64,000 bases of DNA, taken from the NCBI GenBank assembly GCA_034433695.1, contig DAOUAK010000007.1, positions 498 to 64,497 on the forward strand, written 5' to 3'. Each line of letters starts with the position of its first letter. The first letter of the stretch is position 1. The notes beneath the pieces were generated by a model that did no database searches, was not told the DNA's origin, and saw nothing but the letters and a program-made list of their open reading frames with translations. The stretch comes from Chloroflexia bacterium. GTDB taxonomy: Bacteria > Chloroflexota > Chloroflexia > DTKN01. The position numbers were made by a program, and so were the translations under genes. Below, one piece after another: positions 5-64,000 of the stretch.

Positions 5-2877
<2,873 letters not shown>

Positions 2878-2881
<4 letters not shown>

Positions 2882-2907
2882 CGCCCCCGCCGGTGGTGGT
2901 GTACAAT
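2878..2907 (+). promoter_or_regulatory. sigma70-like promoter TTGACG-18-TACAAT overlapping the uvrA stop; likely drives the GT2/flippase-like operon
   Basis: TTGACG at 2878-2883 and TACAAT at 2902-2907. An AAGGAG RBS at 2937-2942 precedes TTG 2949. The spacer/-10 region shares a 19-mer with the promoter at 10144-10172. Confidence 0.5.
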
Positions 2908-2948
2908 GCCCCCGGCGAGTGGCCGGAATCTCGCCCAAGGAGAAGCCG

Positions 2949-3839
2949 TTGGCCGAAAGTCGTGTCGCCACGCCGGAGGTGAGCGTCGTCCTTCCGGCCC
3001 ATAACGAGGCCGGCCGGGTGGGCGCCGTGGTGAAGGCCATCCGCCGGAACTATCCGGAGGCGGAGATTCTGGTGGTGGATGACGCCTCCACCGACGCCAC
3101 CGCCGACGAAGCCCGGTCCGCCGGGGCCATCGTCCTCCGCCACCCCTATAACAAGGGCAATGGCGCCGCCGTCAAGACGGGCCTGCGCCAGGCCCGCGGC
3201 CGCCTGATCGTGCTGATGGACGCCGATGGCCAGCACGATCCGGACGACATTCCCCGCCTCCTGGAGCCGCTGGCGGAGTACGATCTGGTCGTCGGGGCCC
3301 GCCACCCGGCTTCCCAGTCCTCCTTTCTGCGTCGCCTGGGCAACGGCTTCTTCAACGCCCTGGCCACGTACCTCACCGGCCGGCCCATCCCCGACCTGAC
3401 CAGCGGCTTCCGCGCCGCCCGCCGGGAAGCGCTTTTAGAGTTCCTCCACCTCCTGCCCAACGGCTACTCTTACCCCACGACGACCACGCTGGCCTTTCTC
3501 AAGGCCGGCTACAGCGTGGCCTTTGTCCCGATCCGCTCGGCCCGGCGCGAGGGGGGAAAGAGCGGCATCCGCCTCCTCCGCGACGGCATCCGCTTCATCC
3601 TCATTATCCTGCGCATCGCCACCCTCTTTTCGCCGCTCAGGGTCTTTCTGCCGGTCAGCGCCGGCCTCTTTGTCCTGAGTTGCCTTTCGGCCGGCTACAC
3701 CATCTTGACCGAGGCCCGGCTCCATATTCCCAACTCGGCCGTCCTCCTCTTCACGATGAGCGTCATCGTCTTCCTGATCGGGCTGGTCTCGGAACAGATC
3801 GCCCTGCTACGCTTCGAGCGGCGGGAGCATCGGCCGTAG
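2949..3839 (+). CDS. GT2 polyprenyl-phosphate glycosyltransferase (ArnC/GtrB/DPM1-like) with C-terminal TM helices
   Basis: Motifs VVLPAHNEAGR, VVDDASTD, DADGQHDP; C-terminal hydrophobic segments. The long 2763 ORF overlaps uvrA. In-frame TTG at 2949 is 6 nt after AAGGAG, so it is the likely start. Confidence 0.8.
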   Translation: MAESRVATPEVSVVLPAHNEAGRVGAVVKAIRRNYPEAEILVVDDASTDATADEARSAGAIVLRHPYNKGNGAAVKTGLRQARGRLIVLMDADGQHDPDDIPRLLEPLAEYDLVVGARHPASQSSFLRRLGNGFFNALATYLTGRPIPDLTSGFRAARREALLEFLHLLPNGYSYPTTTTLAFLKAGYSVAFVPIRSARREGGKSGIRLLRDGIRFILIILRIATLFSPLRVFLPVSAGLFVLSCLSAGYTILTEARLHIPNSAVLLFTMSVIVFLIGLVSEQIALLRFERREHRP

Positions 3840-3855: not shown

Positions 3856-4872
3856 TTGGGCAAACGGTGGCAGCGGTGGGGTGGTCTCGCACTGCGCTGG
3901 GCCCTCCGGCTTCTCGGACCGGCCCTCCTGGTCTATATCCTCTGGAGCAACCGCGACGAACTGACCCTGGCCGGGGAAACGCTGCGTCGGGTGCAGTGGT
4001 TCCCCTTGGTGCTGGCCTTTGTGCTGGTCTTTCCCTTTGTCCTGCTCAAGGGCTGGCGCTGGCAGGTCATCCTGAAGGACCTGGGGCAGGACGTCCCCTG
4101 GAAGCGGCTTACCTTCTACTATGCCCTGGGCATCTTCCTGGGCGCCGCCGTGCCGGGGCAGGCCGGCGATTTCCTGAAAGCCTGGTACCTCAAGGAGGAC
4201 GGCTATGACCTGGGGGCCGCCTTCCTGAGCACGGTGGTGGACCGGCTGTTCGATATGCTCATGATGGGCCTCCTGGCCCTGAGCGGGCTATACATCCTCC
4301 TGCGCCTGGCCTCGGCCCCGACGCTCCTCCTCGTCCTGGGCCTCATGCTGGCCGGCATCGTCCTCTTCCTGAGCCTCCTCCTGGACCGGCGCTGGCGCAA
4401 CTGGTTGATCGAACGGGTGCTGCGTTATATCATCCCGGCGGCGGTGCGGCGCGTCCTGCGCGAATACAACGTCCGGGCCTACCTGGATCACTTTTTCCTG
4501 AGTTGGCGGAACGTAGCCCTGGGGACGGCCATCTCCCTCCTCTCTTTCTCTACTACTTTTTTCCGCCTGTGGCTGCTCATCCCGGCGCTGGGGAAGACGC
4601 TACCGGTCGAAACCTTTGTCCCCACGATGGCCCTGATGGGGCTGGCCAGCCTCCTTTCGGTGGCCGGCCTGGGGACGCGGGAAAGCGTCCTCCTGGCCAT
4701 CCTGGGGATACCGGCCCTGACCTACCCGGCCGTCTGGTCGCGGGGGGAAATCCTCAGCCTCTCCGCCCTGATCCTCTGCCTGGGTCTGGAAAACCTGGTG
4801 CTCGGCCTGCCGCTCTACCTCCTGCGTCCGCTGGGGAATCGGGGCGAAACCTACAGAGGGGGGACGTTCTAA
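3856..4872 (+). CDS. flippase-like / lysylphosphatidylglycerol-synthase-TM-like polytopic membrane protein (UPF0104-like)
   Basis: 338 aa with about 8 hydrophobic helices. Contains a PGQAGDFLKAWYL-type motif typical of flippase-like domain proteins that pair with DPM1-like GT2 genes. Starts 17 nt after the GT2 stop. Confidence 0.65.
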   Translation: MGKRWQRWGGLALRWALRLLGPALLVYILWSNRDELTLAGETLRRVQWFPLVLAFVLVFPFVLLKGWRWQVILKDLGQDVPWKRLTFYYALGIFLGAAVPGQAGDFLKAWYLKEDGYDLGAAFLSTVVDRLFDMLMMGLLALSGLYILLRLASAPTLLLVLGLMLAGIVLFLSLLLDRRWRNWLIERVLRYIIPAAVRRVLREYNVRAYLDHFFLSWRNVALGTAISLLSFSTTFFRLWLLIPALGKTLPVETFVPTMALMGLASLLSVAGLGTRESVLLAILGIPALTYPAVWSRGEILSLSALILCLGLENLVLGLPLYLLRPLGNRGETYRGGTF

Positions 4873-10111: not shown

Positions 10112-10143
10112 CGGCGAACGAACCCGGCATCCCCTAGCGAGGT

Positions 10144-10172: not shown

Positions 10173-10211
10173 GAATTTATCTATAGCCGTGGTTGGTGGA
10201 GGCCGGAAGCG

Positions 10212-29461: not shown

Positions 29462-30670
29462 ATGCGTCCGCTGGTCTTTGTTTCTACCTGGTACGGGCCG
29501 GAAACTGTAGGTGGGGCAGAAAACCTCTGCCGGCGGCTGGCAGAAGAATGTTGCCGGGCCGGCCAGCAGGTCACCGTCTACACGACCACTTCGCGGGGCT
29601 ATACGTTCCCCTGGTTCGACCCCTATTACCCCGAAGGCGTCCAGGAGTGGAACGGCGTGCCGGTCCACCGTTTCCCCATCTGTCGGTGGCAGGAAGCCTC
29701 CTTCTGGGGAGAGCGGCTTGACCTCCTGAGAAAACTACCGGTCTTTGCCCCGGAAGAGGTGGCCCACCTTCTGGAAATGCCCCAAAGCGATGAACTGTAC
29801 CGGGCCATCGCCCGGAATCAGGAAGCCTTTTTTGTCTTCTTCATCTATTCCCACAATCTGACATTTTGGGGAAGCCAGATTGCCCCGGAGCGTTCGTTTC
29901 TCCTGCCCTGCCTGCACGACGAGCCGTATGCCTACCATTTCGCCACGGCCTGGCTGATGGAATGGGTTCCCTGGCTTCTCTGTCTTTCAGAACCGGAACG
30001 CGAACTGGCCCTCCGGCTGTACCGGGTTCCGCCGGAGCAGGCCTTTCTCGTCGGGATGGGGGTGGATACCCACTGGCGGGGGGATGCAGAACGCTTCCGC
30101 TCCCGACATGGCATCGGCGAGCCGTTTCTGCTCTATGTCGGCCGGCGCGATAGTTCCAAAAACGTTCCCCAGTTGCTGGAATATTTTTGCGCCTATAAGA
30201 GGCGGCATCCGGGCCATCTCCGCTTGCTCCTCGTCGGGCCGGGGGAGATCGCGATTCCCCCTGAGGGGGCCGGCCAAATCCTGGACCTGGGGGTCCTGGA
30301 CGAGCAGGACAAGCAAGATGCTTACGCTGCTGCAACTCTGCTGGTCCAACCCTCACCCCTGGAGAGTTTCTCCATCGTCTTGATGGAGGCCTGGCTTCAG
30401 GGCACGCCGGCGCTGGTCAATGCCCGCTGTGCGGTAACAACTTTTCACTGCCGGCGCAGCCATGGAGGATTATACTACCGGGGCTACGGGGAATTCGAGG
30501 CCTGTCTGGACTATATTCTGGCGCGACCGGCCCTACGAGAACGGATGGGGGCGGCTGGCCGGACCTATGTCCTCCACCATCACACCTGGCCGGCGGTGGT
30601 CGAGCGCCTTCTCCGGGCCGTGGAGGAAAAGGAACGAGCCTTGTCGTCCGGATACGTTTCCCACAGGTAA
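29462..30670 (+). CDS. GT4 family glycosyltransferase
   Basis: VFVSTWYGPETVGGAENLCRRLAEE at the N-terminus; C-terminal LVQPSPLESFSIVLMEAWLQGTPALV sugar-donor binding region. Confidence 0.85.
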   Translation: MRPLVFVSTWYGPETVGGAENLCRRLAEECCRAGQQVTVYTTTSRGYTFPWFDPYYPEGVQEWNGVPVHRFPICRWQEASFWGERLDLLRKLPVFAPEEVAHLLEMPQSDELYRAIARNQEAFFVFFIYSHNLTFWGSQIAPERSFLLPCLHDEPYAYHFATAWLMEWVPWLLCLSEPERELALRLYRVPPEQAFLVGMGVDTHWRGDAERFRSRHGIGEPFLLYVGRRDSSKNVPQLLEYFCAYKRRHPGHLRLLLVGPGEIAIPPEGAGQILDLGVLDEQDKQDAYAAATLLVQPSPLESFSIVLMEAWLQGTPALVNARCAVTTFHCRRSHGGLYYRGYGEFEACLDYILARPALRERMGAAGRTYVLHHHTWPAVVERLLRAVEEKERALSSGYVSHR

Positions 30671-30674
30671 TCCG

Positions 30675-43075: not shown

Positions 43076-43101
43076 GCGGGGTATGGCCTCAACCTACCCG
43101 G
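43068..43101. repeat. intergenic hairpin, member 3 of the CGGGTAGG...CCTACCCG family (between convergent wecB and GT4)
   Basis: CCGGGTAGG cggggtatggcctcaa CCTACCCGG: 9-bp stem with a 16-nt loop. Confidence 0.55.
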
Positions 43102-44365
43102 AAACCGGCTGGTTCCGGTTCGGCAGCAACCCTTCGAGCAAATCTACCAACTGCCGGGCCTGGGTCTGGCGGGAGTAGTGTTCCTCCACAAAGTGCCGGC
43201 CGCGCCGGCCCATTTCCCGGCATTTCTCCCGGTCGGCGGAAAGCGCAAGGATGGCCCGGGCCATCTCTCTGGGCTCCTCCGGCGGGACGTACACCCCGGC
43301 CTGGGCCCGCTCCAGCACCTCCCGGGCCTCCCCGGGAATGCTCAACACCACGGGGCAGGCGCAGGCCCAGGCGTCGAACATCTTGGAGGGCAGGGCGCTG
43401 TGAAAAAGTTCCGCCCGACGCAGCGGCACCAGGGCCACGTCGGCCGCCGAGAAAAAGGCCGGCATCTCCTCCCGCGGCCGGCCCTCCAGCATCGTCACGT
43501 TCCTGAGCCCCATCTCCTCCTTCCTCCGCATCAGGTCGGCCTTGCAGGGCCCCTCGCCCACCAGGAGAAAGTGGATATGGGAAGCGCCCGTAAGCAACCG
43601 GGCCGCCTCCAGCACCGTCTCCAGGCCCTGGGCCACGCCGTGGATGCCGGCATAGAGCACCAGGAAGGGGCGCTTCGGGAAGCGTTCCTCCCCAAAACCT
43701 AATTCCCGACGCAGGAGGTAGCCGGCCGTCGGCTCGGGGCGAAAGAGGTCGGTATTGGCTCCGTTGGGGATGAGGACAATCTTCTCCGCCGGGAAGCCGC
43801 GTTCCACCAGCCGCTGGCGGATGCCCTCGGTGACCACGACGATGCGCCGGGCGCGTCGGTAGCACTGCTCCTCCAGCGCGGTAGCCCAGCGGATCCAGCG
43901 CGGGTTCCGGAGTTCCCCCAGCGCCACGGCCGACTCGGGCCAGAGGTCACGCACCTCAAAGACCATCGGGATACGCCGGAGGTGAGAAAGGGCGAGCGCT
44001 GCCCCACCGACAAAGAGCGGCGGGGAAGTGGCATAGAGGAGGTCGTAGCGCCCCCGAGCTCGAAACAGCCCGGCCAGGATGGCCTGGAGCATGAAGGTCA
44101 GATAAAAGGCCAGACGGGTGCGCATGGTCTTGACCGGGGAGGTCCAGACCCAGACCCGGATGATGTCAATCCCGTCCAGTTCCTCCCGCACCCAGAAACG
44201 CCGGCGGTACTCCGGCCGGATGACGCCTTCCGGGTGGTTGGGCACCTCGGTCAGCATGGTGACGGTGTGGCCGGCCTGGACAAGCCCCTGGGCCATCTCA
44301 TAGGCCCGCGTCTGGGTGGCGCCGACCTCGGGGGGAAAATACTGGCTGAGGTAGAGGATGCGCAT
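43094..44365 (-). CDS. GT4 family glycosyltransferase (WbuB-like)
   Basis: MRILYLSQYFPPEVGATQTRAYEMAQGL at the N-terminus; C-terminal FSAADVALVPL...SKMFDAWACACPVV region. Confidence 0.85.
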   Translation of the reverse strand: MRILYLSQYFPPEVGATQTRAYEMAQGLVQAGHTVTMLTEVPNHPEGVIRPEYRRRFWVREELDGIDIIRVWVWTSPVKTMRTRLAFYLTFMLQAILAGLFRARGRYDLLYATSPPLFVGGAALALSHLRRIPMVFEVRDLWPESAVALGELRNPRWIRWATALEEQCYRRARRIVVVTEGIRQRLVERGFPAEKIVLIPNGANTDLFRPEPTAGYLLRRELGFGEERFPKRPFLVLYAGIHGVAQGLETVLEAARLLTGASHIHFLLVGEGPCKADLMRRKEEMGLRNVTMLEGRPREEMPAFFSAADVALVPLRRAELFHSALPSKMFDAWACACPVVLSIPGEAREVLERAQAGVYVPPEEPREMARAILALSADREKCREMGRRGRHFVEEHYSRQTQARQLVDLLEGLLPNRNQPVSG

Positions 44366-47879: not shown

Positions 47880-47952
47880 GGGCCGCTAGCTCAACTGGTA
47901 GAGCAGTTGACTCTTAATCAACGGGTTCGAGGTTCGAGTCCTCGGCGGCTCA
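47880..47952 (+). tRNA. tRNA-Lys (anticodon CTT)
   Basis: GGGCCGC TA GCTC AACTGGTA GAGC A GTTGA CTCTTAA TCAAC GGGTT CGAGG TTCGAGT CCTCG GCGGCTC A. Good cloverleaf; CCA is not encoded. Confidence 0.85.
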
Positions 47953-48032
47953 TGGGTTTTCTGGATGTTCCGTTGTCGAACGGTCAGTCGTTATCCGTCC
48001 ACCTTCTTCGGTATCGAGTGGGGAGGTATCCT

Positions 48033-49694
48033 ATGTCTCGAAAAACCCTCTTCCTCTTCGGCGCCTCTCTCCTGGGCCTCGCGGTGATCGGCGTTTCTCT
48101 GGGCCTGATCTTGACCCGCCCTTCGGGAAGCGAGGTCTCGCCTCTGGCCCCCTACATTCCGTCCGAGGCGCCTGTGGTCCTTTTCGTCCGGATTCCCGTG
48201 GGGGAAGGGGCCAAGGCCTGGTCGCCGCTCTCCGATATTCTATCCGAGATCCCCGGCTTCCAGGTAGGAATCGCCATGCTCTGGAGTAGACCCTTGTTCT
48301 CGGGGACGGACATCCGCCTGAAGCAGGATGTGGAACCCTGGTTGGGGAATTCCCTGGCCGTCTGCTTCACCCGGATGCCGGCCGAAATATTCGGCGGCGC
48401 GGCGGAGTCGGAGGTCCCCTCTCTCCTTTTTGCCGTTGAGGTGCGGGATGAGGCAGCGTTCCGCGCCTTCCTGGAACGCCTCCGCTCGGAACTGGAAAAG
48501 GCCGGGACGCCGCTGGAGGAAAGCACCTTCGGCCGGTATACCCTCTTTGCCCTTCCCCAGCAGAACCTTTCCTTTGCCCTTCGCGATGGCCGCATCCTCC
48601 TCCTCTCCGATGCAGACACGCTGAAGGCGGCTTTGGAGCGGGAGGAGAAGGATTCTTTGGCCGGTAGCGCCGACTACCGGGCCCTTCTCGCCCACCTGTC
48701 TTCGGGCGGGGTGCTCCAGGTGTATTTCTCCTCCAAAGGTCTGGGCCTCCTTCAGCGCCAGGCGGCGACCGTCTCCGCCGGGATACCCATGAAAGCCGGT
48801 GCTTTCACCTTGCTCGTGGAATCCGAGGGTCTGCGGCTCCAGGCCGTTTCCCTGATCGACCGGGAGGCGCTGGCCGAGGTAGGTGCGGGGGATTACTGGT
48901 CTCCGAACCCGGAGCGGGCGCTTTCCTTTCTGCCCAAAGAAAGCCTCCTGGTTTTTTCCAGCCGTGTGCCCGACCTGGAAGGCCTCCGGGAAGGAATCCT
49001 ATCCGCCCTCCGCCCAATCGACCCCTCTGCCTATCGGGAACTCCGGGACGCCCTGGAGGAGTTGAGCGAAAAGGGCCTGGATGTGGAAAAGGACCTCCTT
49101 CGCTGGATGGGCGGGGAAGTCGGCTTCTTTGTCGCGCTGAGCGGGGAAGGGGGGATTCCTCTGGGGGAAAATGCCCCCTCGATGCGCCTCGGCTTGCTGG
49201 TGGAGGTTCGGGACCTGGACCAGGCCCGGCAGGGCATGGAGAAAGTCGAAGCCCTGCTGGGCCAGGAGGCCGGCTTCTCCTTCTCCGACCGCGAGATCGC
49301 CGGCCTGACCTTCCGCGTCTCCCGTATCCCGGGGGAGTCGGACCTGACCCCTGGCTACGCCCTGGTGGACAATTTTCTGGTCCTGGCCCTCGACAAGGCC
49401 TCCCTCGAGTCGCTGGCCCAGGCCCGGTCCAACCCCGGAGAACGGGTATCTTCGGCAGAGGAATTTCAGGCGGTCCTGCGCTTCCTGCCGGGGTCGCGTA
49501 CCGCACTTACTTTCCTGAACCTGGAAAGCCTCTGGAAGACCCTGGCCTCCGCCCTGCCGGACGAGGCGCGCCGAGGTGCCGGAGCATGGCTTTCCATAGC
49601 CGAGCACTTCCAGGGCCTGGGTATCGCTACGGCCGCCGGCCGGCCCCAGGACGAGGTCCTGACCGGAGTCGTGTTCCTGCACATCGTCCGCTAG
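48033..49694 (+). CDS. uncharacterised signal-anchored/secreted protein (DUF3352-like)
   Basis: ATG 48033 after GGGAGG. N-terminal hydrophobic anchor LFLFGASLLGLAVIGVSLGLIL. No catalytic motifs recognised. The 47907 ORF start would overlap the tRNA and is rejected. Confidence 0.5.
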   Translation: MSRKTLFLFGASLLGLAVIGVSLGLILTRPSGSEVSPLAPYIPSEAPVVLFVRIPVGEGAKAWSPLSDILSEIPGFQVGIAMLWSRPLFSGTDIRLKQDVEPWLGNSLAVCFTRMPAEIFGGAAESEVPSLLFAVEVRDEAAFRAFLERLRSELEKAGTPLEESTFGRYTLFALPQQNLSFALRDGRILLLSDADTLKAALEREEKDSLAGSADYRALLAHLSSGGVLQVYFSSKGLGLLQRQAATVSAGIPMKAGAFTLLVESEGLRLQAVSLIDREALAEVGAGDYWSPNPERALSFLPKESLLVFSSRVPDLEGLREGILSALRPIDPSAYRELRDALEELSEKGLDVEKDLLRWMGGEVGFFVALSGEGGIPLGENAPSMRLGLLVEVRDLDQARQGMEKVEALLGQEAGFSFSDREIAGLTFRVSRIPGESDLTPGYALVDNFLVLALDKASLESLAQARSNPGERVSSAEEFQAVLRFLPGSRTALTFLNLESLWKTLASALPDEARRGAGAWLSIAEHFQGLGIATAAGRPQDEVLTGVVFLHIVR

Positions 49695-54667: not shown

Positions 54668-55402
54668 ATGCGTTTTGCGGTGATCTCCGACATCCATGCC
54701 AACCTGGCCGCCCTGGAAGCCGTTCTGGAAGACATCGGGGACGGCGTGGACCGGATCTGGTGTCTGGGCGATGTCGTCGGCTATGGCCCGGACCCCAACG
54801 AGTGCGTGGAGCGCGTCCGTCGGGAGGACATGGTCTGTGTGGCCGGAAACCACGACTGGGCCTGCCTGGGGAAGGTGGACCTCCTGGAGTTTAACCCCGA
54901 TGCCCGTCGGGCCTGCCGCTGGACGATGGAACAACTGACCCCGGAGAACCGGGAGTTTCTGGACCATCTGCCCGTTTCCCTGGTCATCGGGGATTTTACC
55001 CTGGTGCACGGCAGCCCGAGGGCGCCGATCTGGGAGTATATCACCCAGCCCGAAGCCGCCCAAGACAACTTCGGTTTCTTTGACTCCCGGGCCTGTCTGG
55101 TGGGGCATACCCACGTGCCGCTGGCCTTTTACCTGCCCCCGGGGGATAGGGCGAACTGCGAACGCTGCTGGCTGGGCGGGCTGGAGCGGCTGGAACTGGG
55201 TGGGGGGCGCTGGATTCTCAATCCGGGCGGGCTGGGCCAACCCCGCGACGGCGACCCTTCGGCTCCCTATTTTATCCTCGACACCGAGGCCATGACGCTG
55301 GAAATACGCCGGGTGCCCTACCCGGTGGAGGTCACCCAGCGGCGCATGGAGGAGGCCGGCCTGCCGGGTAACCTCATCCTGCGCCTGGGCTTTGGGTGGT
55401 GA
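54668..55402 (+). CDS. metallophosphoesterase (calcineurin-like, YfcE/MJ0936-type)
   Basis: FAVISDIHAN, GDVVGYGP, GNHD, GHTH and LNPGG motifs. Confidence 0.85.
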   Translation: MRFAVISDIHANLAALEAVLEDIGDGVDRIWCLGDVVGYGPDPNECVERVRREDMVCVAGNHDWACLGKVDLLEFNPDARRACRWTMEQLTPENREFLDHLPVSLVIGDFTLVHGSPRAPIWEYITQPEAAQDNFGFFDSRACLVGHTHVPLAFYLPPGDRANCERCWLGGLERLELGGGRWILNPGGLGQPRDGDPSAPYFILDTEAMTLEIRRVPYPVEVTQRRMEEAGLPGNLILRLGFGW

Positions 55403-56591
55403 GGGTTACGCGCCCCTGCGTTTCCCAAACCCCGGCGGTGAGGCGAATGACCACGGCCTGCTCCAGCACCATCGGGTGAAAAACCTGCCGGTCGGCCGCC
55501 GTGATGAGCACCTGGCCGCGGCCCTCCAGAAGCCATCCCTGTAAATAGTTCCTTCGCTCCGGATCGAGTTCGGAGAGGACATCGTCCAGGAGGACGACCG
55601 GCATCTCGCCGCTTCGATCCTGCAACCACCCCACCTGAGCCAGTTTCAGGGCAATTGTAGCGGTGCGTTGCTGGCCGCGGGAGCCGTAGACGGCCAGGTC
55701 CATCTCCCCCAGGAAAAAGCCCAGATCGTCCCGGTGCGGCCCCAGGAGAGTCATCCCTCGTTCCACTTCCTCGGGCCAGGCCCGGGCCATCGCCTGGCGG
55801 AAGGCATAGGCCACGCTCTCCTCATCCTCTTCGGGACGGCAGGGGACGTGGTGCCGGTAGATCAGCCGCAGCGGTTCGGGAGTGCCGGTCAGGCGGCCGT
55901 GCAAATTTTCCAGGAGCGGCGCAAGTGCCGTCACCAGGCGATGGCGGGCCACGATGAGGTAGGCGCCGTTCTGCACCATCTCCCGGTTCCAGAAGGCCAC
56001 CTGTTCTCGGACCTCCGGCGGCAATTTCCCCGTCTCTTTCCATCCCTGAAGCAGCCGGTTGCGCTGGAGGACGACGCGCCGGTAGCGCTCCAGCGCCTGC
56101 CAGTAACGCGGGTCGGCCTGAAGGAGGACGGCGTCCAGGTAGTTTCGCCGGCGGGCGGGGGAGCCGGTGATCAGGTTGAGGTCCTCCGGCTCGAAGAGGA
56201 CGACCTGGAGCCGGCCGACCGCCTCCCGGGCCCGCACCGGCCGGCGGTTGAGAAAGAAGCGCTTCTGGCAGCGTCCGGTGAGCCGCCCCTGGGGGTCCAC
56301 CAGGCGCTGGACGGCCACCTCCAGCGAAAGAAGCCCGTCCTTCCGCTCCACGCGGCCGGCGACGCGGGCAAAAGGGGGCAGACCCATTTCCGCCGGGGCT
56401 TCCCAGTGGATGAGTTCGCGTTCGGCCCCGGCCCGTGGGGAGCGGGCCGTCGCCAGAAGGACCAGCGCCTCCAGAAAACTCGTCTTGCCGGATGCGTTCG
56501 GCCCCCAGAGGACGGTGATCCCCGGCGAGAGGGAAACCTCCAGGCGGCGATAGTTCCGAAAATCCTTGAGCGCTACGTAAAGAAGGTGCAT
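55374..56591 (-). CDS. recF: DNA replication and repair protein RecF
   Basis: MHLLYVALKDFRNY...GPNASGKTSFLEA Walker A, C-terminal LLLDDVLSELD. ATG at 56591; upstream part of the ORF is spurious. Confidence 0.9.
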   Translation of the reverse strand: MHLLYVALKDFRNYRRLEVSLSPGITVLWGPNASGKTSFLEALVLLATARSPRAGAERELIHWEAPAEMGLPPFARVAGRVERKDGLLSLEVAVQRLVDPQGRLTGRCQKRFFLNRRPVRAREAVGRLQVVLFEPEDLNLITGSPARRRNYLDAVLLQADPRYWQALERYRRVVLQRNRLLQGWKETGKLPPEVREQVAFWNREMVQNGAYLIVARHRLVTALAPLLENLHGRLTGTPEPLRLIYRHHVPCRPEEDEESVAYAFRQAMARAWPEEVERGMTLLGPHRDDLGFFLGEMDLAVYGSRGQQRTATIALKLAQVGWLQDRSGEMPVVLLDDVLSELDPERRNYLQGWLLEGRGQVLITAADRQVFHPMVLEQAVVIRLTAGVWETQGRVTLTTQSPGAG

Positions 56592-56651
56592 CACCGTAGG
56601 GGCGCCCTCGGAGGACGCCTGCTGGGGCCGGGGCAACCCGGGTGGTTGCCC

Positions 56652-59600
56652 TTACGGCGCCTCAAAGACCAGGATACGCCCGTTCCCCGAATCGCTCACA
56701 TAGATCCGGCCGGTTTCATCCACGGCGATACCGACGGGGATGGACATCGGCACCCGGCCGGCGTCCACCCCACTCCAGACCAGAAGGACCTTCCCCGCCC
56801 CATCGGTAGCGGCCACATAGTTGCGTCCCGGGACGGTAAAGTAGACCTGCCCGCCGGGGGAAACGGCCACATACGGCTTGTTGTTATCTCCCGTGGAAAG
56901 TTCCCAGCCGGGAACCTCCCAGGTTGCGGCCGGCTGGGGGGAAATTCTTCCATCCGGGCCCGGAGCAAAGACCTGAAGGCGCATGTTCCAGGCGTCGGCG
57001 ACGTAGAGACGGCCGGAGGCATCCACGGCCAGGCCGACCGGCTCCAGAAACTGCCCCGGGGCGGAGCCGGCCGTCCCCCACTGGTAGAGGTACTCGCAGG
57101 TCAGGCGGCCGGATTCATCCGGGCGAACCCGGTAGGCCAGGATGCGCTCGTTCCCCGTATCGGCCACATAGACATTCCCCTGGGCATCCACGGCGACGGC
57201 GCGGGGGCCGTAGAAGCCGAAGGGATGGGCAGCGCGGGCGTTAGCATCCTCTCCCGTATCCACCAGAATCCCCTCACCCCATTTGCCCAGGAAATTGCCT
57301 TCGCCGTCAAAGACCTGGATGCGGTGATTCCATGTATCGGCGACGTAGACATGCCCCTGCCCGTCCACCGCCAGTCCCCAGGGGGTCTTGAACTGGCCGT
57401 CCCCCATCTGCAGAGGGCCTTCGCCGTCGGGGTCCAGGCAGCCTTCGCCGGTCTGAAGGTCACAGTAGGTACCCCAGGAGAAAAAGTTCCCCTGCGCATC
57501 GAAGCGGACCACGCGGTGATTGCCGCTGTCGGCGACGAAGAGGTTTCCCTGGGCGTCCAGGGCTATAGCCCCCGGAGCCCACAACTGGCCGGAGCCGCTT
57601 CCCGGACTTCCCATCACCCTTATCGCCGTGCGTTCGGTGAGTTTTTGGAGATAGGGGTCCTCTTCGAGTGCGGAGGGGCCGGCCGGCAAGAGGTCGCTGC
57701 GCACATAGAGGTAAAAGTCCTGGCCGGGAGCGACGAGGGGGACGCGCAACGCCTGACCGGGAGCAACGCTGGGGTTGCCGCCGTTCAGGGAAAGAAGCGT
57801 CTCGGAGGCGATGCCTAGGCGGGCGGCGATGGAGGCGAGGCTCTCGCCGGGCCGGACCTGGTAGGTAACCTCCGTGGGCAACTGGCGGTAGAGCCAGTAG
57901 TTCCAGAGGTCCCCCAGCCCTTTGGGGCTATATCTCCAGAACGCCAGGAGGGGCACCGTCTGGTAGCCTGCATCGGTTGCCCCGGCATAAAGGAAAGTCC
58001 AGCGCCGAAACGTCCCGTCCTCGGGAAATCCCCAGCGCGCCTTCAACCGCATCCCGGTATATTTTGCGGCCAGGACGGAACGCAGGGCCGGCTCGTGCTC
58101 GGCCAGGATCAGGACGATGTCGCCCTCGGTGCGGGGCACTCCCTGGCTTCCGTCGAATTCGGTGAGGGTGCCGGCCTGCTCAAAGGCGCGCAGATACCAG
58201 CGGAAGGGCCAGGCCAGCGTGTTCGTACAGGAGGGATCGGGGGGCTCCGTCGGGCAGGGGTTGTCCACCAGCACCCGGAGGCCATGCCCGCCGGTGGGGT
58301 CGGCGGACGTGCGCATCTCGCTCTTGCGGGTCTGGTCGCGGGACAGGCGTTCGATCTGGCGCACCACCAGAGGCACATCCGGCGCGGTCTGGTCGCGGAC
58401 GAGCATCTCCTGTGGGGAGTCGCCGCCGTAAAAGTTCAGGAGGAAGGTGCTGCGGGCGGTATAGAGGGCCAGAAGGAGGAGGCCCAGGACGGCAAACGAT
58501 TGCCCCAGGCGGCGGCCCTCACTCCGCCAGATACGCCAGGCCAGGAAAGCCAGCAGCCCGAGGACGATGAGGGCCAGGACACCCATCAGCAGGCTCTGGT
58601 ACTCCTCGACACGGGGATGGGGCAACTGCCCCTGGCCCAGAATCACCAGGCCGCGCAGGGCAAAGGCCAGGAGGAGAAAGAGGGGGGCGATGGCCCACTC
58701 GCCGTGACGCCACAGTTTGCGCCAGGCACACCAGGAGGCGAAGCGTTCCAGGGCCAGACCGGAGAGGAGCATCCAGGGCAAAGCCACGTGCAGGAGAAGC
58801 CAGGGAGATTTTTCCCCGGCCCAGGAGAAGGCCAGGAAGGAGAAGACGGACCAGTAGGACAGGAAGACATGGAAGAGAGGAACGTCGAACGTTGAACGAG
58901 GAACGTTGAACGAGGAACGGCCGGCTTCTTCCGTCCCAGAACGTCTCATCCGGGCCAGGACCAGCCCCAGGCCGGCCAATCCGGCGGTCAGGGCGATCGG
59001 CTCGTAGAGGGCCAGGAGGATGGGATAGTACGACCAGTCCCCCCCACCCTGGAGATGCCGTCCGGCCCAGTATTCGATTCCCCGCACCAGGCCGTCCAGA
59101 AAACCGCGCGGATGGGTGAGAAAGGTGGTAAAGAAGAGGGCAAAGATCAGGCCAAAGACGCCCAGGGCGGTGAAAAAGGGGCGGGGGTCTTCCCGGAGAG
59201 AACGCACCGCCTGCACCAGGGCGGAGGCATCGGCGCGGAGGAAAGAGAGGCCCAGGTAGCCCAGGGAGAGGAAGGCCAGCAGGATGAGGACGGCTTGCAG
59301 GACGGGAACAACGCCCAGGGTGGCCAGGCCGGCCGCCCCCAGAAGGCCGACCACAAAGACCAGGCCGGCGATGGTCCTCCCCTCGGTGAGAAAGCGCTCT
59401 CCCTGGACCTGGAGGAGATAGGCCCACCCCAGGAAAGAAAGGAAGACAAGGCCGATGAGGAAGGAAGCCTCATGGGTGGTTACGGCCAGGGCCAGGCAGG
59501 CCCCGGCCAGGACCAGGTCGGCGGGGCGGCGTACCTCCAGGTAGCGGAAGAGGAAAAAGACTGCGCCCAGGGTAAAGAGGGCGACGAACGCTTCCGGCCG

Positions 59601-60101
59601 GGCAGAGCGGGAAAAGTAGACGAAGGAAGGAGAAAGGGCCAGCAGCGCAAGGGTGGCTATACCGCCCCAATGGCCCAGCCAGCGCCGCAGGGGGAAGGCC
59701 AGGGCCACGAGCAGCACGCCGGCCAGGGCCGGAGCCAGGCGGGCCGTGGCGTCGCTATCCCCGAAGAGGAAGTAGAAAAGGGCGGTCAGGTGGTAGAGAA
59801 AGGGGCCGTGGAAAGCCGGATCGTACCGATAGGGAAGGGCACCCCGGTAGAACTGCCAGGAGAACCAGGCATAGAGGGACTCGTCCGGATGCATCGCCCG
59901 GCCGCCCAGGTCCAGAAGGCGCAGGAGCGCCGCCGCAAGAAGCAGGCCCAGGAAGAGCCAGACCGGCACGGGGACGCGGGTCAGGTCCACCGTCCGGTCC
60001 AACAACGAAAGCGGCCGGCCGACGCCTTCGTTCGCACGGGTAACCCTGGGGATCGCCCCCTCCTGAGCATATGGTCCTTCTCTTTCGGCCATCTTGTTCA
60101 C
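56652..60101 (-). CDS. ArnT/PMT_2-like GT-C membrane glycosyltransferase fused to LysM domain and NHL-repeat beta-propeller
   Basis: N-terminal HPDESLYAWFSW (DE motif of the ArnT/PMT first loop) followed by more than 12 TM helices. LysM segment YQVRPGESLASIAARLGIASETLLSLNG. At least 6 NHL-like blades (e.g. GNLFVADSGNHRVVRFD, GHVYVADTWNHRIQVFD, GNVYVADTGNERILAY, GRLYVADAWNMRLQVF, GRIYVSDSGNGRILVFE). Confidence 0.8.
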   Translation of the reverse strand: MNKMAEREGPYAQEGAIPRVTRANEGVGRPLSLLDRTVDLTRVPVPVWLFLGLLLAAALLRLLDLGGRAMHPDESLYAWFSWQFYRGALPYRYDPAFHGPFLYHLTALFYFLFGDSDATARLAPALAGVLLVALAFPLRRWLGHWGGIATLALLALSPSFVYFSRSARPEAFVALFTLGAVFFLFRYLEVRRPADLVLAGACLALAVTTHEASFLIGLVFLSFLGWAYLLQVQGERFLTEGRTIAGLVFVVGLLGAAGLATLGVVPVLQAVLILLAFLSLGYLGLSFLRADASALVQAVRSLREDPRPFFTALGVFGLIFALFFTTFLTHPRGFLDGLVRGIEYWAGRHLQGGGDWSYYPILLALYEPIALTAGLAGLGLVLARMRRSGTEEAGRSSFNVPRSTFDVPLFHVFLSYWSVFSFLAFSWAGEKSPWLLLHVALPWMLLSGLALERFASWCAWRKLWRHGEWAIAPLFLLLAFALRGLVILGQGQLPHPRVEEYQSLLMGVLALIVLGLLAFLAWRIWRSEGRRLGQSFAVLGLLLLALYTARSTFLLNFYGGDSPQEMLVRDQTAPDVPLVVRQIERLSRDQTRKSEMRTSADPTGGHGLRVLVDNPCPTEPPDPSCTNTLAWPFRWYLRAFEQAGTLTEFDGSQGVPRTEGDIVLILAEHEPALRSVLAAKYTGMRLKARWGFPEDGTFRRWTFLYAGATDAGYQTVPLLAFWRYSPKGLGDLWNYWLYRQLPTEVTYQVRPGESLASIAARLGIASETLLSLNGGNPSVAPGQALRVPLVAPGQDFYLYVRSDLLPAGPSALEEDPYLQKLTERTAIRVMGSPGSGSGQLWAPGAIALDAQGNLFVADSGNHRVVRFDAQGNFFSWGTYCDLQTGEGCLDPDGEGPLQMGDGQFKTPWGLAVDGQGHVYVADTWNHRIQVFDGEGNFLGKWGEGILVDTGEDANARAAHPFGFYGPRAVAVDAQGNVYVADTGNERILAYRVRPDESGRLTCEYLYQWGTAGSAPGQFLEPVGLAVDASGRLYVADAWNMRLQVFAPGPDGRISPQPAATWEVPGWELSTGDNNKPYVAVSPGGQVYFTVPGRNYVAATDGAGKVLLVWSGVDAGRVPMSIPVGIAVDETGRIYVSDSGNGRILVFEAP
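58879..58920. repeat. short tandem repeat (GAACGNN x6, or 14-mer GAACGTTGAACGAG x2.5) inside the GT-C/NHL coding sequence
   Basis: GGAACGTCGAACGTTGAACGAGGAACGTTGAACGAGGAACGG. Encodes the SSFNVPRSTFDVP loop between TM segments. The unit length is not a multiple of 3. Confidence 0.6.
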
Positions 60102-60110
60102 CTGACGAGA

Positions 60111-63014
60111 TCAACGCTTGGGTATATGATCCTTCAACCATTCCAGCGGCAAGACCAGGTCGCGCCGAATGTAGACGGCGAACTCGCGTGCCCCCAGCGG
60201 GGAAGGAACCTGGCGGAAGAGCAGGTAGCGCCAGATGCGGGCCTGCCCACTGGGGTTGAGCAGGACCTGAAAGACATCGCCCAGGTCGGGTTCGCGCATC
60301 TGTCCGAGGATACTATAGCCGCCGGGAAAAGAGGCCGGGCGCAGGAGGCTCAGGAGCGGGCCGGCCGGACCCAGCGGAAACTGCCCGACCTCCCGGGCCG
60401 CCTGGTAGGCTCGAGAAAAGACGCCCGGCAGAAGGAGGGAGATCGGTTCCAGGGCGGCCATCCGGCGCTCGCGCTCTTGAAGCAACTCCGGGGCCAGACG
60501 CTCCATAAAGGTACGGGTACTCCGGTAGATTTCCTCGGGAAACCACCAGTTGAAGGCATAGTAGCGGGTGGGGGCAAAATCCTTCTCCAGGAAGGCCGCG
60601 CTTTCGCTGCCATAGGTCCGGTAGGTTAGGACGACGGCGGCATCCCGGTATTGCTGGAGGCTGGCGGGGCTGACGGTGGCCCCGACCAGGGCCCGGTGGG
60701 GGTAGTTGCGCAGATACCACTCCAGCGGCCAGGCCACCTCGTTTTCGTAAAGGACGGTTATGTCCCGGCCGCCGGTGGTGAGGGTGGAGAGGGTGCCGAT
60801 TTCGTCCACGGCCCACTGCAGGTCGGAGGAGGACTGAACGTAGATGAGCATCTCCACCGGCGTATCGTTGTTCAGGTAGGTCAGCCGGAAGGCGCTGCCG
60901 AAACTGTAGAGGGAGAAAAGGATCAGGAGGAGAAGGGCGGCGCTGCGCCAGGCCCGCTTCCCCACCAGGAGGGCCCGGAGGAGGAGGGCAACGGCAAAGA
61001 TCGCCGGGGGAACGTAGAGCGCATACCACTCCCCATAGGCTTGCTCCGGGTGTTCGGCCGGCCAGCCGAAGGAGCGGGAACTGGCCCCCAGGATGGACAT
61101 CCCAAAGGCCGCCAGGCCCAGCACCCAAAAGCCCGCCTCGCTCCGCCAGGCGCTTTCCCCCCCGGAGAAGGCCAGGTAGGCCAGGCCCAGGAGGACGGCG
61201 CTGCACCCGAGCCAGAGGAGAAACTCGGCCGGCCGGGAGAAGAAAGCGCGGCCGGCCCAGAGGAGGAGACCGGCCCCCAGGAGAAAAGTCAGGCGGTCGG
61301 CCCAGAGGCGGGCCGGGGCCGGGCCGGATTCGTCGCCTCCGGGATGTCCGGCGGGCCGCCGGCCGCCGCCGGCGCGGGGACGCGCCTGAAGCAGCCGATC
61401 CTGCCGAAGCCACCGCCCGAGAAGACCCGGCCCCTCCGGCCGGGCGGCCACAACCCTCCCCAGGAACGTCGCCGCCAGGAGGACAAAGGGCAGGGCCGGG
61501 TGGACGTTCAGCCAGGGGGTCTGTTCCCCGGCAAAGGAGTACAGGAAGAGGGTCAGCGGGGCCCACAGGGAAAGCAACCCGGTGGCGAACCCCGGGGCGG
61601 CGGCCGGCGGCGCGGCCATCTCCTGCCCGGGTTGCGGACACCCGGCCTGCCCCCGGGTCAGCCCCCGCCAGGCATAGTACAGGACCCCCAACGTGCCAAA
61701 GAGGAGCGAGACCGGCTCATAGACGGAAATCAGCATGAGGAAGTATTGCGGGCCGACGTGGATGCGCTTGACCTCCTGTTGCGTGAGCCAGAAGCCCAGA
61801 GGTTGCAGGAGGCCGGTGGCCCAACCGGTCATGCTCTGGAAAAAAGAAGTGTGGAGGACAAAAAAGATGCCCCAGAAGAGGCCGGCGGCCAGGGCAAAAC
61901 GTCGCGGGTTCCAGAGCAGGCCCAGCGCGACCGAGAGGGCGAAGGTGAAGGCGACGGCGATGAGGGCCAGGGGAACTACCTCGGAGGGAAACTCGGTGGA
62001 GTTGTATCCCAGCGGAGGCAGGCCGCGCAACGCGATCAGGGCGTTCAGGGGAACGGCCGAGAGAAGCGGCAGGACCAGGGCCAGGAGGAGGACCACCAGG
62101 TCCAGCGAGGGGTCTATAGAGGCAAGGCCTGCCTTGCCCCTACTGCGGCATTCCCAGAGGTATCCGACCAGCATGGCCAGCACGGCCGCCCCGGCTGCCA
62201 GAAGAAAACCCAGGGAAAGGGCACTCAACGGGAGACCGAAGACCTTGATGAGGGGAGGGAGGAAGGCCCCTCGGCCCATGACCTGCCAGAGGTCCTCCAG
62301 AGCGGCCGGAAGCAGGCCCAGCAGAGGCCAGAAGGCGTGCAGGCCGTAGCGTTCCCAGAGCACCTGGGCCACCAGGAAGAGAAAGAAGACGGCGGTAGCA
62401 AGGTATGCGGTCGGCTTGGCGCAAAAGTGCAAACAGGTGGCCAGAACGGCCCCATAGAGCCAGAGGTCCCGCCGTTCGCCCACATAGCGCACGATGCAGA
62501 CAAAGAGGAGAAGGGTGAAAAAGGCCCCGAAGACGTCGGGGTGGCCGAAGCGGCCGAAGTAGAGAAAGGTCGGCGAGATAAGGAGAAGGAAAGAGGCCAG
62601 GAGTGCTCCCCAACGGCCCAGGTAGCGGCGAAGCAGGGCCGGCAGCATGACCGTGGCCGTGCCGAAGACGGCCAGAATCAGGCGAAAGGTGGCATCGCTA
62701 TCGCCGAAGAGGAAATAGGAAAGAGCGGCGGCGTGGTAGATGAGGGGGCCGTGGTAGACGGCGTCGTGCACCCAGCCATAGCCCCGGTAGATGTTCCAGC
62801 CGAAGAGGGCGTGGATGCCCTCGTCGTGGTGCAGGGCCATCCCGTTCAGGAGGGCGAAACGGGTGAGGAGGGCCAGGGCGAAGATCAGGAGGTAGAGGAG
62901 CGTCTCCAGAGAAAGTCCCCGACGGGACGCCGTATGGCCGGCCGGGATAGAGGGCCGGCCGGCTTCCGGCAAAGAGGTGTCATCTTCCTGCGCCCGAGGC
63001 CATGCTTGGGCCAT
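60111..63014 (-). CDS. ArnT/PMT_2-like GT-C membrane glycosyltransferase (paralog of the adjacent gene)
   Basis: HHDEGIHALFGWNIYRGYGWVHDAVYHGPLIYH aligns with HPDESLYAWFSWQFYRGALPYRYDPAFHGPFLYH of the neighbour. More than 14 TM helices and a C-terminal soluble domain. Confidence 0.8.
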   Translation of the reverse strand: MAQAWPRAQEDDTSLPEAGRPSIPAGHTASRRGLSLETLLYLLIFALALLTRFALLNGMALHHDEGIHALFGWNIYRGYGWVHDAVYHGPLIYHAAALSYFLFGDSDATFRLILAVFGTATVMLPALLRRYLGRWGALLASFLLLISPTFLYFGRFGHPDVFGAFFTLLLFVCIVRYVGERRDLWLYGAVLATCLHFCAKPTAYLATAVFFLFLVAQVLWERYGLHAFWPLLGLLPAALEDLWQVMGRGAFLPPLIKVFGLPLSALSLGFLLAAGAAVLAMLVGYLWECRSRGKAGLASIDPSLDLVVLLLALVLPLLSAVPLNALIALRGLPPLGYNSTEFPSEVVPLALIAVAFTFALSVALGLLWNPRRFALAAGLFWGIFFVLHTSFFQSMTGWATGLLQPLGFWLTQQEVKRIHVGPQYFLMLISVYEPVSLLFGTLGVLYYAWRGLTRGQAGCPQPGQEMAAPPAAAPGFATGLLSLWAPLTLFLYSFAGEQTPWLNVHPALPFVLLAATFLGRVVAARPEGPGLLGRWLRQDRLLQARPRAGGGRRPAGHPGGDESGPAPARLWADRLTFLLGAGLLLWAGRAFFSRPAEFLLWLGCSAVLLGLAYLAFSGGESAWRSEAGFWVLGLAAFGMSILGASSRSFGWPAEHPEQAYGEWYALYVPPAIFAVALLLRALLVGKRAWRSAALLLLILFSLYSFGSAFRLTYLNNDTPVEMLIYVQSSSDLQWAVDEIGTLSTLTTGGRDITVLYENEVAWPLEWYLRNYPHRALVGATVSPASLQQYRDAAVVLTYRTYGSESAAFLEKDFAPTRYYAFNWWFPEEIYRSTRTFMERLAPELLQERERRMAALEPISLLLPGVFSRAYQAAREVGQFPLGPAGPLLSLLRPASFPGGYSILGQMREPDLGDVFQVLLNPSGQARIWRYLLFRQVPSPLGAREFAVYIRRDLVLPLEWLKDHIPKR

Positions 63015-63065
63015 CGCCGTCTTGTGCTCCTGCCTTGGGTATGGCCGGGATGTCCCGGCAAGGCC

Positions 63066-63094
63066 ATTATACCTGAAGAGGCCGGCCCAGGCAA
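63066..63094 (-). promoter_or_regulatory. promoter TTGCCT-17-TATAAT (minus strand) for the tandem GT-C genes and possibly recF
   Basis: Minus-strand read is TTGCCTgggccggcctcttcagGTATAAT. The -10 lies 50 nt upstream of the start at 63014. Confidence 0.5.
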
Positions 63095-63476
63095 ATCGCG
63101 TAGAGGCATACGTAGGGCCGCTTCATAGTCGCTGAACAGGGGACTATGGGCAGGGATCCCCCGATTTGCCAGAACGATCATCGGGTGCTTTCAGGTGTAT
63201 ACAGTCTGGGCTCGGACAAATTTTGAATTGTGGGTTGCAACTGGCAAAAGTTGGTCTGTTCGTGCACGCTGGTGGGGAAACATCCTGGAATATGATGCCC
63301 TGGTGGGGCGCGATCTCGAGTAAGGTCGAAATCGAGCGATTTTCATGAGTCCGGTTGGTTACACCAGCACGAAAGCGGCGTTGGACGAGTTCTCGGCCCA
63401 ACCTTTAGCGGCTCTGCGTATTTTGGGGGTAACTATCGGACTATGAAACAGCCCTCGACACACAATTACGGGGGAC

Positions 63477-63505
63477 TTGACAAATTGCAATAGGTGTGGT
63501 ATAAT
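63477..63505 (+). promoter_or_regulatory. promoter TTGACA-17-TATAAT (TGgTATAAT) at the right end of the window
   Basis: TTGACA at 63477-63482 and TATAAT at 63500-63505. Followed by a ~100-nt leader containing a 12-codon uORF and a GC palindrome. Confidence 0.6.
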
Positions 63506-63607
63506 GGGTGTAAACGGGCCGGCGGCCCGGCCGAGAAAAAGCGAAGGAGGTGATAGGATGGACGTTTCGGCCAACCGGTACTCGAAAGCAGGTTGAAAGG
63601 AGGAGGG

Positions 63608-63850
63608 ATGTCCTCGAAGCGGCGAGAAAAGGCGGCAAGCGGCATCGGGGTCGGGCCGGCCCTGGCCGGCCTGGCGATTGTGGTGCCGGTCTGGGTGGGC
63701 CTGACCGGGCCGGCGGTGGCCGGGAGACCCCAGGGGGCGGGAGAGCCTCCGGTGGCCTTTCCCCAGTCTTTGCCGACCGCTGCCGGAGGGGAGCCGGCGG
63801 CCGGCGTGCAGCACCGCGAGGTTGTGGGCACGATCCCCCTGGGGCTGTGA
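63608..63850 (+). CDS. small hypothetical membrane protein (about 80 aa)
   Basis: ATG 63608 is 6 nt after AGGAGG. One hydrophobic helix (ALAGLAIVVPVWVGL). No homology recognised. Confidence 0.35.
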   Translation: MSSKRREKAASGIGVGPALAGLAIVVPVWVGLTGPAVAGRPQGAGEPPVAFPQSLPTAAGGEPAAGVQHREVVGTIPLGL

Positions 63851-63869
63851 AAGGGAAGGAGGAAAAAGG

Positions 63870-64000
63870 TGAAAACGAGGACCTGGAGAGTGGTACTGCT
63901 TCTGTCCGGAGTGTTTCTGGCCGTCCTGCAGGGCGAAGGAGGGGTAACCCCGGCCATGGCCGGTTCCCCCGATGGAAAGGTAGAGGTGCTGGCCGTCCCC
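63870..64000 (+). CDS. hypothetical secreted protein, 5' part only (runs off the window)
   Basis: GTG 63870 after GGAAGGAGG. Signal-peptide-like VKTRTWRVVLLLSGVFLAVLQG. Confidence 0.35.

Follow-up and report, generated by a model that had tools for sequence, protein, structure and literature searches.

Two paralogous Agl23-family membrane proteins with a predicted GT-C fold, one carrying LysM and NHL modules, suggest a cell-wall-directed sugar transferase in a Chloroflexia bacterium

Genes of the locus

The DNA analysed here (the window) is a 64,000-nucleotide stretch from a Chloroflexia bacterium (GenBank assembly GCA_034433695.1, contig DAOUAK010000007.1, positions 498 to 64,497 of the forward strand; genome 65% GC). 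Two long open reading frames (ORFs), called geneA and geneB below, lie head to tail on its minus strand and encode paralogous membrane proteins of the Agl23 family (NCBIfam TIGR03663) with a predicted GT-C glycosyltransferase fold; the downstream protein also carries a LysM domain and an NHL beta-propeller. Together, these features suggest a sugar transferase directed at the cell wall, and not the lipid 'flippase' of the family name. The coordinates of the features are listed in Table 1.

The geneA ORF starts with ATG and the geneB ORF with GTG. Between the stop codon of geneA (TGA) and the geneB GTG there are 9 nt, as given in a preliminary description of this DNA, which had reported a tandem minus-strand pair with a 9-bp gap. 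An alternative start for geneB, the ATG at 60092, is situated three codons past the GTG with a Shine-Dalgarno-like site (AGGTGA) 5 nt upstream, and agrees with a 1146-aa cluster member encoded on a 64.7-kb NCBI contig. This ATG is more likely to be the true start, in which case the intergenic gap would be 18 bp instead of 9. The third-position GC is about 0.8 in both ORFs, which were taken as genuine genes for this reason. The nearest public relatives are from metagenome-assembled genomes (MAGs) labelled Chloroflexia bacterium (82-86% protein identity), and one protein cluster is 96-97% identical.

The single promoter proposed earlier for both genes corresponds to a candidate site upstream of geneA, recognised by its match to the consensus; the region that contains it has four such sites in the consensus scan (0.6 expected). 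Terminator-like sites were found neither at the geneA/geneB junction nor in the short gap between geneB and recF (55374-56636, same strand, downstream of geneB; TIGR00611, 290 bits), and recF may therefore be co-transcribed with the pair. No RNA element was found with Rfam in or near the locus.

Table 1. Features of the geneA-geneB locus and the two unlinked lipid-sugar candidate genes of the window
Feature	Position	Strand	Description and basis
geneA	60111..63014	-	967-aa TIGR03663 protein with predicted GT-C fold, without propeller; upstream member of the pair; ORF, hidden Markov model (HMM) matches, AlphaFold2 (AF2), Foldseek
geneB	56652..60101	-	1149-aa TIGR03663 protein with LysM and NHL; likely start ATG 60092
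Promoter-like site TTGCCT-17-TATAAT	63066..63094	-	About 50 bp upstream of the geneA ATG; 10/12 positions, consensus scan only
geneA membrane domain	60870..62909	-	About residues 36-715; several helices more than geneB; AF2 and hydropathy
geneA D64-E65	62820..62825	-	Acidic pair of the HHDE motif, predicted first extracytoplasmic loop; invariant in the 64-sequence alignment
geneA disordered loop	about residues 544-566	-	Arg/Gly-rich, within the membrane domain; AF2 secondary structure
geneA C-terminal alpha/beta domain	60114..60869	-	Residues 716-967; homologous to geneB 559-815 (BLASTP); AF2
geneB membrane domain	58428..59969	-	Residues 45-558; about 15 helices, N-terminus predicted inside; AF2 and charge count
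geneB D73-E74	59880..59885	-	Acidic pair of the H-P-D-E motif, predicted first extracytoplasmic loop; at least 90% conserved in 64 homologs
geneB extracytoplasmic alpha/beta domain	57873..58427	-	Residues 559-743; common to geneA and the whole family; AF2
LysM module of geneB	57738..57872	-	Residues 744-788; clean insertion directly before the last strand of the alpha/beta domain; Pfam, AF2, PDB sequence matches
Six-bladed NHL beta-propeller of geneB	56655..57641	-	Residues 821-1149; Pfam, AF2 blade pattern, Foldseek
GT2 (glycosyltransferase family 2) gene	2763..3839	+	Candidate donor-synthesis gene, unlinked; true start probably near 2949; Pfam Glycos_transf_2, E = 3e-34
LPG_synthase_TM gene	3856..4872	+	Candidate lipid-sugar flippase, unlinked; Pfam E = 1e-32; TIGR00374 82 bits (cut-off 43)

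Family assignment and fold

The geneA and geneB proteins are paralogs: they were aligned by BLASTP with 44% identity over the first ~180 residues (E = 2e-31), and with about 25% identity in two later segments which include the soluble domain after the last membrane helix. Near the N-terminus, both proteins matched the Pfam model PMT_2 above its cut-off. With TIGR03663 ('flippase activity-associated protein Agl23'; curated cut-off 126.25 bits), geneB scored 268.1 bits and geneA 228.5 bits, and the pair partner genes of the related loci L001, L002, L004, L006, L008 and L009 were likewise above the cut-off. On these profile matches, both proteins are assigned to the Agl23/TIGR03663 family. A profile search of 1.84 billion representatives retrieved 3,145 family proteins at E <= 1e-30 and 6,558 at E <= 1e-10 (counted as representatives at 50% identity).

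Three other GT-C families were tried and rejected. For the PMT family (GT39), there was no match to Pfam PMT (PF02366), MIR or PMT_4TMC, and the equivalog NF058602 scored 26.9 bits (cut-off 800). For ArnT (GT83), no ArnT model appeared in the NCBIfam output and searches of PDB sequences gave no ArnT match, with a single sequence or with a profile. For STT3/AglB/PglB (GT66), no Pfam STT3 match was obtained and the WWDYG motif was present in neither sequence. The preliminary description had called the two proteins ArnT/PMT-like GT-C enzymes: the GT-C fold and the acidic first-loop motif were retained (see below), but the family is TIGR03663, neither ArnT nor PMT, and the HMM classification gave PMT_2 in both proteins with no family-level support for GT39 or GT83.

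When PDB sequences were searched with the membrane domain (single sequence or 64-sequence profile), only chance matches to opioid receptors and PsbY were returned; by such searches, the TIGR03663 family is without a solved structure. AF2 models of both proteins were built from 64-sequence alignments (geneB: predicted local distance difference test score (pLDDT) 91.7, predicted template modelling score (pTM) 0.80; geneA: pLDDT 87.4, pTM 0.89). The geneA protein was modelled for the membrane fold, because Foldseek searches with the full geneB model were swamped by NHL matches. The top Foldseek matches of geneA in the PDB (E < 0.1) were all GT-C proteins: AglB, ArnT, STT3, Pmt4, Pmt1-Pmt2, EmbA/B/C, PglB and ALG9. 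The lowest E-values were obtained with GT66 proteins (AglB, E = 1e-6; 3wak, 7e9s), at template modelling scores (TM-scores) of only 0.3-0.35, and the best TM-score normalised to the target was that of ArnT (0.51-0.52; 5f15, 5ezm); TM-scores were modest overall. From the models, both proteins are predicted to have a multi-helix membrane domain with a GT-C fold. Fold and motif match GT-C enzymes, and the concern that the DE motif and the transmembrane architecture might prove unlike GT-C was not borne out.

Membrane topology and conserved residues

For the topology of geneB, the AF2 helices were taken as membrane segments and the Arg/Lys-rich N-terminus was set inside. The resulting 15-helix model carries 20 Lys + Arg residues in the inside loops versus 9 in the short outside loops, and places residues 559-1149 (~590 residues, LysM and NHL included) outside. 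The LysM/NHL region is thus predicted to be extracytoplasmic, as the preliminary description required, and not cytoplasmic. The topology of geneA was taken from its homology to geneB; secondary structure alone left the helix count and parity of geneA unsettled.

In the same model, all the invariant or nearly invariant non-helix residues of geneB (D73, E74, H98, R165, R168, W345, E430, K431, D613, W635, Y636 and R638) are outside, and the 'in' loops contain no invariant or nearly invariant residue. Equivalents are retained in geneA: D64, E65, R111, R155, W409, E433, E497, W766, Y767 and R769. The alpha/beta domain that follows the membrane domain is conserved in both proteins: D613, P632, W635, Y636 and R638 are invariant in geneB, and the corresponding domain of geneA carries the motifs WYLR and WWFPE, in which W766, Y767, R769, W823 and W824 are invariant (64-sequence alignment).

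The DE-containing motif of the first loop, already pointed out in the preliminary description, was confirmed as invariant or nearly so in both proteins and is predicted to be extracytoplasmic. These HxDE acidic pairs are located about 10 residues past the first transmembrane helix, and the geneB pair is in an 'out' loop; in GT-C enzymes of PMT type, the catalytic acid is generally found at about this place. Two NHL-fused relatives, P0095 and P0100, do not have the HxDE motif (LDPAAAR and LSPSEAM, respectively, at that position) and, judged by these residues, may be degenerate or non-catalytic members.

The LysM and NHL modules of geneB

Both accessory modules reported earlier for the second gene were recovered. 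The LysM domain is canonical in sequence; it matched Pfam PF01476 at residues 747-788 (E = 1e-7; 32.1 bits, cut-off 20.9) and PDB chains 4uz2 and 4xcm by sequence, and the AF2 model has the LysM beta-alpha-alpha-beta fold (strands 744-748 and 784-788, helices 755-762 and 766-772). The NHL propeller was detected by Pfam as five repeats (E = 2e-46) and modelled by AF2 with six blades at residues 821-1147; its Foldseek TM-scores were 0.85-0.87 to the six-bladed NHL domains of Thin, TRIM71 and TRIM2, and 0.75 to the PknD sensor domain (1rwi). The conserved propeller residues correspond to the canonical NHL repeat motif with a few aromatic or charged positions, and no His/Cys metal-type cluster was found among them. 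A binding role is favoured over catalysis on these grounds.

The two modules differ in their distribution. Among the best 150 proteins of the profile search, 45 of the long representatives (at least 990 aa) were scanned; NHL was present in 39 of these 45 and LysM in none. In a 90%-identity collection, the MAGs that supplied NHL-fused members were labelled Chloroflexia, Anaerolineae/Anaerolineales, Roseiflexaceae and Chloroflexaceae. LysM appeared as an insertion of 44-49 residues in 10 of 40 aligned NHL-bearing homologs (the other 30 have 2-12 residues across this span), and its carriers are the near relatives of the window and two proteins at ~57% identity; orthologs that are equally distant (P0010-P0023) have three to five residues at the LysM position.

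By these counts, the GT-C + NHL fusion is a major and widespread subfamily, already labelled by automatic annotation pipelines, and the LysM insertion is rare. In literature on TIGR03663, on Chloroflexi with NHL and glycosyltransferase, and on GT-C with NHL, no description of the architecture was found. The earlier suggestion of an undescribed GT-C + LysM + NHL architecture needs correction as regards the common, automatically annotated NHL fusion; only the LysM part of it is rare. What is unusual here is the LysM insertion, together with the conserved, co-diverging paralog pair.

Conservation of the gene pair

Of the 11 loci examined, 9 (the window, L001, L002, L004, L006, L008, L009, L011 and L013) have a propeller-free TIGR03663 paralog directly upstream of the NHL-fused gene, at identities to geneB down to ~33%, and the genes flanking the pair are unlike between lineages. 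The pair of L011 (823 and 1198 aa) is from a Chloroflexaceae MAG. L008 and L013 represent a second type of module, with a short upstream partner (~600 aa). In L013 (5240-13183), the module has been duplicated further: downstream of the short paralog there are two consecutive NHL-fused copies (1017 and 1030 aa).

A neighbour-joining tree of the shared region was calculated for six loci (window, L001, L004, L006, L009 and L011). The 'up' proteins formed one clade and their 'down' partners a second clade, with the same branching order. Because the two clades mirror each other, geneA and geneB are taken, on this tree, to have arisen by an old duplication and to have been inherited together as a module.

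Genomic context

In the related loci, no conserved donor-synthesis gene was found adjoining the pair, and the flanks vary by locus. The GT2 gene and the flippase-like gene of the window (Table 1) are adjacent to each other, 52 kb from the pair; the GT2 protein resembles polyprenyl-phosphate sugar synthases, its best NCBIfam matches being AglJ, PpgS, a Dol-P-hexose transferase and ArnC, all below cut-off. Elsewhere, TIGR03663 genes overlap an LPG_synthase_TM gene stop-to-start (L014, 5093-7578; L015, 5016-7491) or adjoin it upstream (L016, 6001-9386), and in L017 a TIGR03663 gene is found near two GT2 genes. The TIGR03663 genes of L014, L015 and L016 are short or mid-length, and the overlap or abutment implies, as far as gene arrangement can, that a GT-C-fold protein is translationally coupled to a separate candidate flippase. 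The lipid-linked glycosylation pathway that the preliminary description had sketched from the GT2/flippase-like pair is plausible in view of the resemblance of these two genes and of the comparative context, but they are 52 kb away and show no linkage to geneA-geneB in the window.

TIGR03663 genes were also seen beside genes for DUF2298/TIGR03662 (Chlor_Arch_YYY) membrane proteins (L008, 1-5975; L013, 1-5189; L014, 8255-10489; L015, 7476-9701; L016, 3684-6008), some of which are themselves fused to PMT_2 (1661-1737 aa). This arrangement suggests that some lineages may carry a larger multi-GT-C gene cluster.

Genes of wall synthesis occur near some family members. On a 3.2-Mb contig (L010, 1-11231), a lone NHL-fused TIGR03663 gene adjoins the dcw cluster (MraZ, MraW, PBP, Mur ligases, MraY), from which it is divergently oriented; its position may reflect a connection with peptidoglycan synthesis or be coincidental. 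LytR_cpsA_psr (LCP) genes are located a few genes upstream of the pair in L006 (691-1998) and L009 (664-2079). LCP enzymes join wall glycopolymers to peptidoglycan, and their proximity is a weak contextual hint of wall-polymer biology.

Within the window, three further glycosyltransferase genes were noted: a PMT_2-domain protein of 897 aa (30462-33155, plus strand), a GT87-family GT-C protein of 473 aa (40583-42004, plus strand) and a GT4 gene (43094-44365, minus strand). By their annotation, they point to a genome rich in envelope glycosylation enzymes.

Comparison with known systems

Agl23 of Haloarcula hispanica (HhAgl23) belongs to the same curated family, and a GT-C-like membrane core and the HxDE motif are common to the family members aligned here. 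HhAgl23 is a reported flippase (PMC11182771), whereas the window proteins are bacterial, paired and longer, one of them with LysM and NHL; the shortest family members recovered have ~500-550 aa and no propeller.

In several GT-C enzymes, an extra lumenal or extracytoplasmic domain aids substrate handling, such as MIR in PMTs and the TPR repeats in TMTCs (TMTC1-4). The Pmt1-Pmt2 heterodimer of paralogs (GT39; 6p25) is like the window pair in its GT-C fold and in the DE motif of loop 1. The window proteins are unlike Pmt1-Pmt2 and TMTC1-4 in having no MIR or PMT_4TMC, and in carrying NHL and LysM as C-terminal accessory modules.

ArnT (GT83), the closest target by TM-score and a member of the Pfam PMT_2 group, takes its sugar from a polyprenyl-phosphate donor on the outer face. 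The window proteins differ in that they have no sequence-level match to ArnT even by profile, are far larger and possess a C-terminal alpha/beta domain. The acceptor would also differ: ArnT acts on lipid A, which we take to be lacking from the wall architecture of the window's lineage. The GT66 enzymes AglB, PglB and STT3 are laid out like the window proteins, with a membrane domain of many helices and, after it, an extracytoplasmic alpha/beta domain that carries conserved Trp-rich motifs (in the window WYLR and WWFPE, which may be their equivalents); the low TM-scores and the missing STT3 match and WWDYG motif set them apart. The PknD sensor domain is likewise a six-bladed NHL propeller outside the membrane on a membrane-anchored protein, but in PknD it is attached to a kinase and not to a glycosyltransferase-fold membrane domain. 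We know of no ligand of the PknD propeller.

Other features of the window

The spacer upstream of geneA (63015-63590) has a lower GC and no Rfam match. It contains a perfect sigma-70 consensus (TTGACA-17-TATAAT with TG extension; 63477-63505, plus strand) directed away from geneA. Downstream of this site, within 63590-64000 (plus strand), there is a small ORF for a one-helix membrane protein of ~80 aa with a strong GGAGG site; the next ORF, with a signal-peptide-like start near 63862 (plus strand), continues past the end of the window.

Of two adjacent genes at 10008-15412 (plus strand), one encodes a 707-aa fusion of a STAND NTPase with a Ser/Thr protein kinase and the other a STAND NTPase of 1094 aa; judged by these domains, this pair is signalling or defence-like and unrelated to the GT-C pair. 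A tRNA at 47880-47952 (plus strand, 66 bits) overlaps the called start of a DUF3352 ORF (47907-49694, plus strand), and the DUF3352 gene must therefore begin further downstream.

Proposed function and alternatives

We propose that geneA and geneB encode a heteromeric, outward-facing GT-C transferase that uses a polyprenyl-phosphate sugar donor and an envelope acceptor, and give this reading a probability of about 0.5; the analysis shows the structure of the genes, their family, the fold, the conserved motif, the predicted placement of LysM and NHL outside and a pair that is conserved and co-diverges, and from these we infer transfer (as against flipping), the heteromer, the donor, the acceptor and the peptidoglycan binding. 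The two proteins would act together, probably as a heteromer in the manner of Pmt1-Pmt2 or EmbA-EmbB, and the complex would take a sugar from a polyprenyl-phosphate carrier and attach it to a wall-associated acceptor of the cell envelope. Catalysis and donor binding would take place at the outer surface of the membrane, in a site made up of the HxDE loop and the remaining conserved residues that face outward; the NHL propeller of geneB would bind or position the acceptor, and LysM, in this lineage, would tether the enzyme to peptidoglycan. An outward-facing transferase, probably heteromeric, is favoured because of the fold, the conserved outside domain, the placement of all the conserved residues on the predicted outer face, the separate flippase-like genes beside family members and the Pmt1-Pmt2 and EmbA-EmbB precedents.

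Several points weigh against this proposal. Sidedness was derived from helix parity and charge bias, and the tree of the pair was built by plain neighbour joining and carries no support values. The genes around the pair in the window (recF, a metallophosphoesterase gene and a GNAT acetyltransferase gene) include none for donor synthesis and none otherwise connected with glycosylation. In two loci of Anaerolineales type (L010 and L012), the NHL-fused gene is alone, so a partner is not universally required. Finally, purified HhAgl23 translocated M5GN2-PP-Dol in liposomes and rescued a yeast rft1-delta mutant (PMC11182771).

These last results are the family's only experimental data, and they make a serious rival of the view that the proteins are flippases or scramblases, which would move polyprenyl-phosphate-linked sugars across the membrane while LysM and NHL only localise them at sites of wall synthesis. 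The NCBIfam family name and the above-cut-off membership of both proteins agree with it, and HhAgl23 is cited as a putative hexose-P-dolichol flippase (Lu et al. 2020, as cited in PMC11182771). We nevertheless regard a flippase as less likely than a transferase: the conserved polar residues are all on the predicted outside face and further invariant residues are in the soluble outside domain, which is the pattern of a transferase site, and the fold and the acidic loop-1 motif fit known GT-C transferases. In addition, ~590 extracytoplasmic residues would be superfluous for flipping, dedicated flippase-like genes adjoin family members elsewhere (L014, L015 and L016), and a build-up of hexose-P-dolichol in a mutant would, by our own reasoning, be equally expected from the loss of a transferase that consumes it.

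A further question is whether the two proteins work together at all, or are independent enzymes with different acceptors or donors, placed side by side for co-regulation and forming no complex. Each paralog could act alone, since both retain the full set of conserved residues; there are partnerless NHL-fused genes (L010 and L012), and in L013 one short paralog accompanies two NHL-fused copies. Yet gene order and adjacency are kept down to ~33% identity despite changing flanks, the two clades mirror each other, the intergenic gap is very short (9-18 bp), and heterodimers of paralogs are known in the GT-C fold (6p25, 7bvf), and we regard independence as rather unlikely. Least credible is a bifunctional enzyme in which the propeller would itself be catalytic (a lactonase, lyase or esterase like SMP-30/SGL, PAL or Vgb) and act on what the membrane domain makes or uses. 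A Pfam SGL match (46.5 bits, cut-off 26.3) and weaker strictosidine-synthase-like, phytase-like and Vgb-lyase matches were obtained, but these matches fall on the NHL repeats and score far below NHL itself (154 bits), conservation follows the structural repeat motif and includes no His/Cys metal cluster, and the best structural matches are binding-type NHL domains.

Implications for the Agl23 family

The heteromeric transferase proposed above can be extended to a wider claim, which is tentative and more doubtful than not: that the Agl23 family in Chloroflexota consists of outward-facing GT-C transferases working as obligate paralog heterodimers, with NHL (and LysM) for docking on peptidoglycan and acceptor selection. 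If this were true, it would reveal an unrecognised system of wall or surface-protein glycosylation in monoderm-like Chloroflexota, and archaeal Agl23 proteins would be reassigned as transferases. If TIGR03663 proteins merely flip lipids, the finding would be a curiosity of domain architecture only.

The only functional label of TIGR03663, flippase, stems from one archaeal protein. An outward region of ~590 residues with a propeller, the LysM of this clade and the outer-face conservation are hard to reconcile with a pure flippase and point to a transferase, and the architecture of this subfamily offers a concrete, testable handle on the function of TIGR03663. The conserved paralog pair may correspond, in bacteria, to heterodimers such as Pmt1-Pmt2 and EmbA-EmbB, and it is a candidate for an enzyme that glycosylates the envelope of Chloroflexota, a process of which little is understood.

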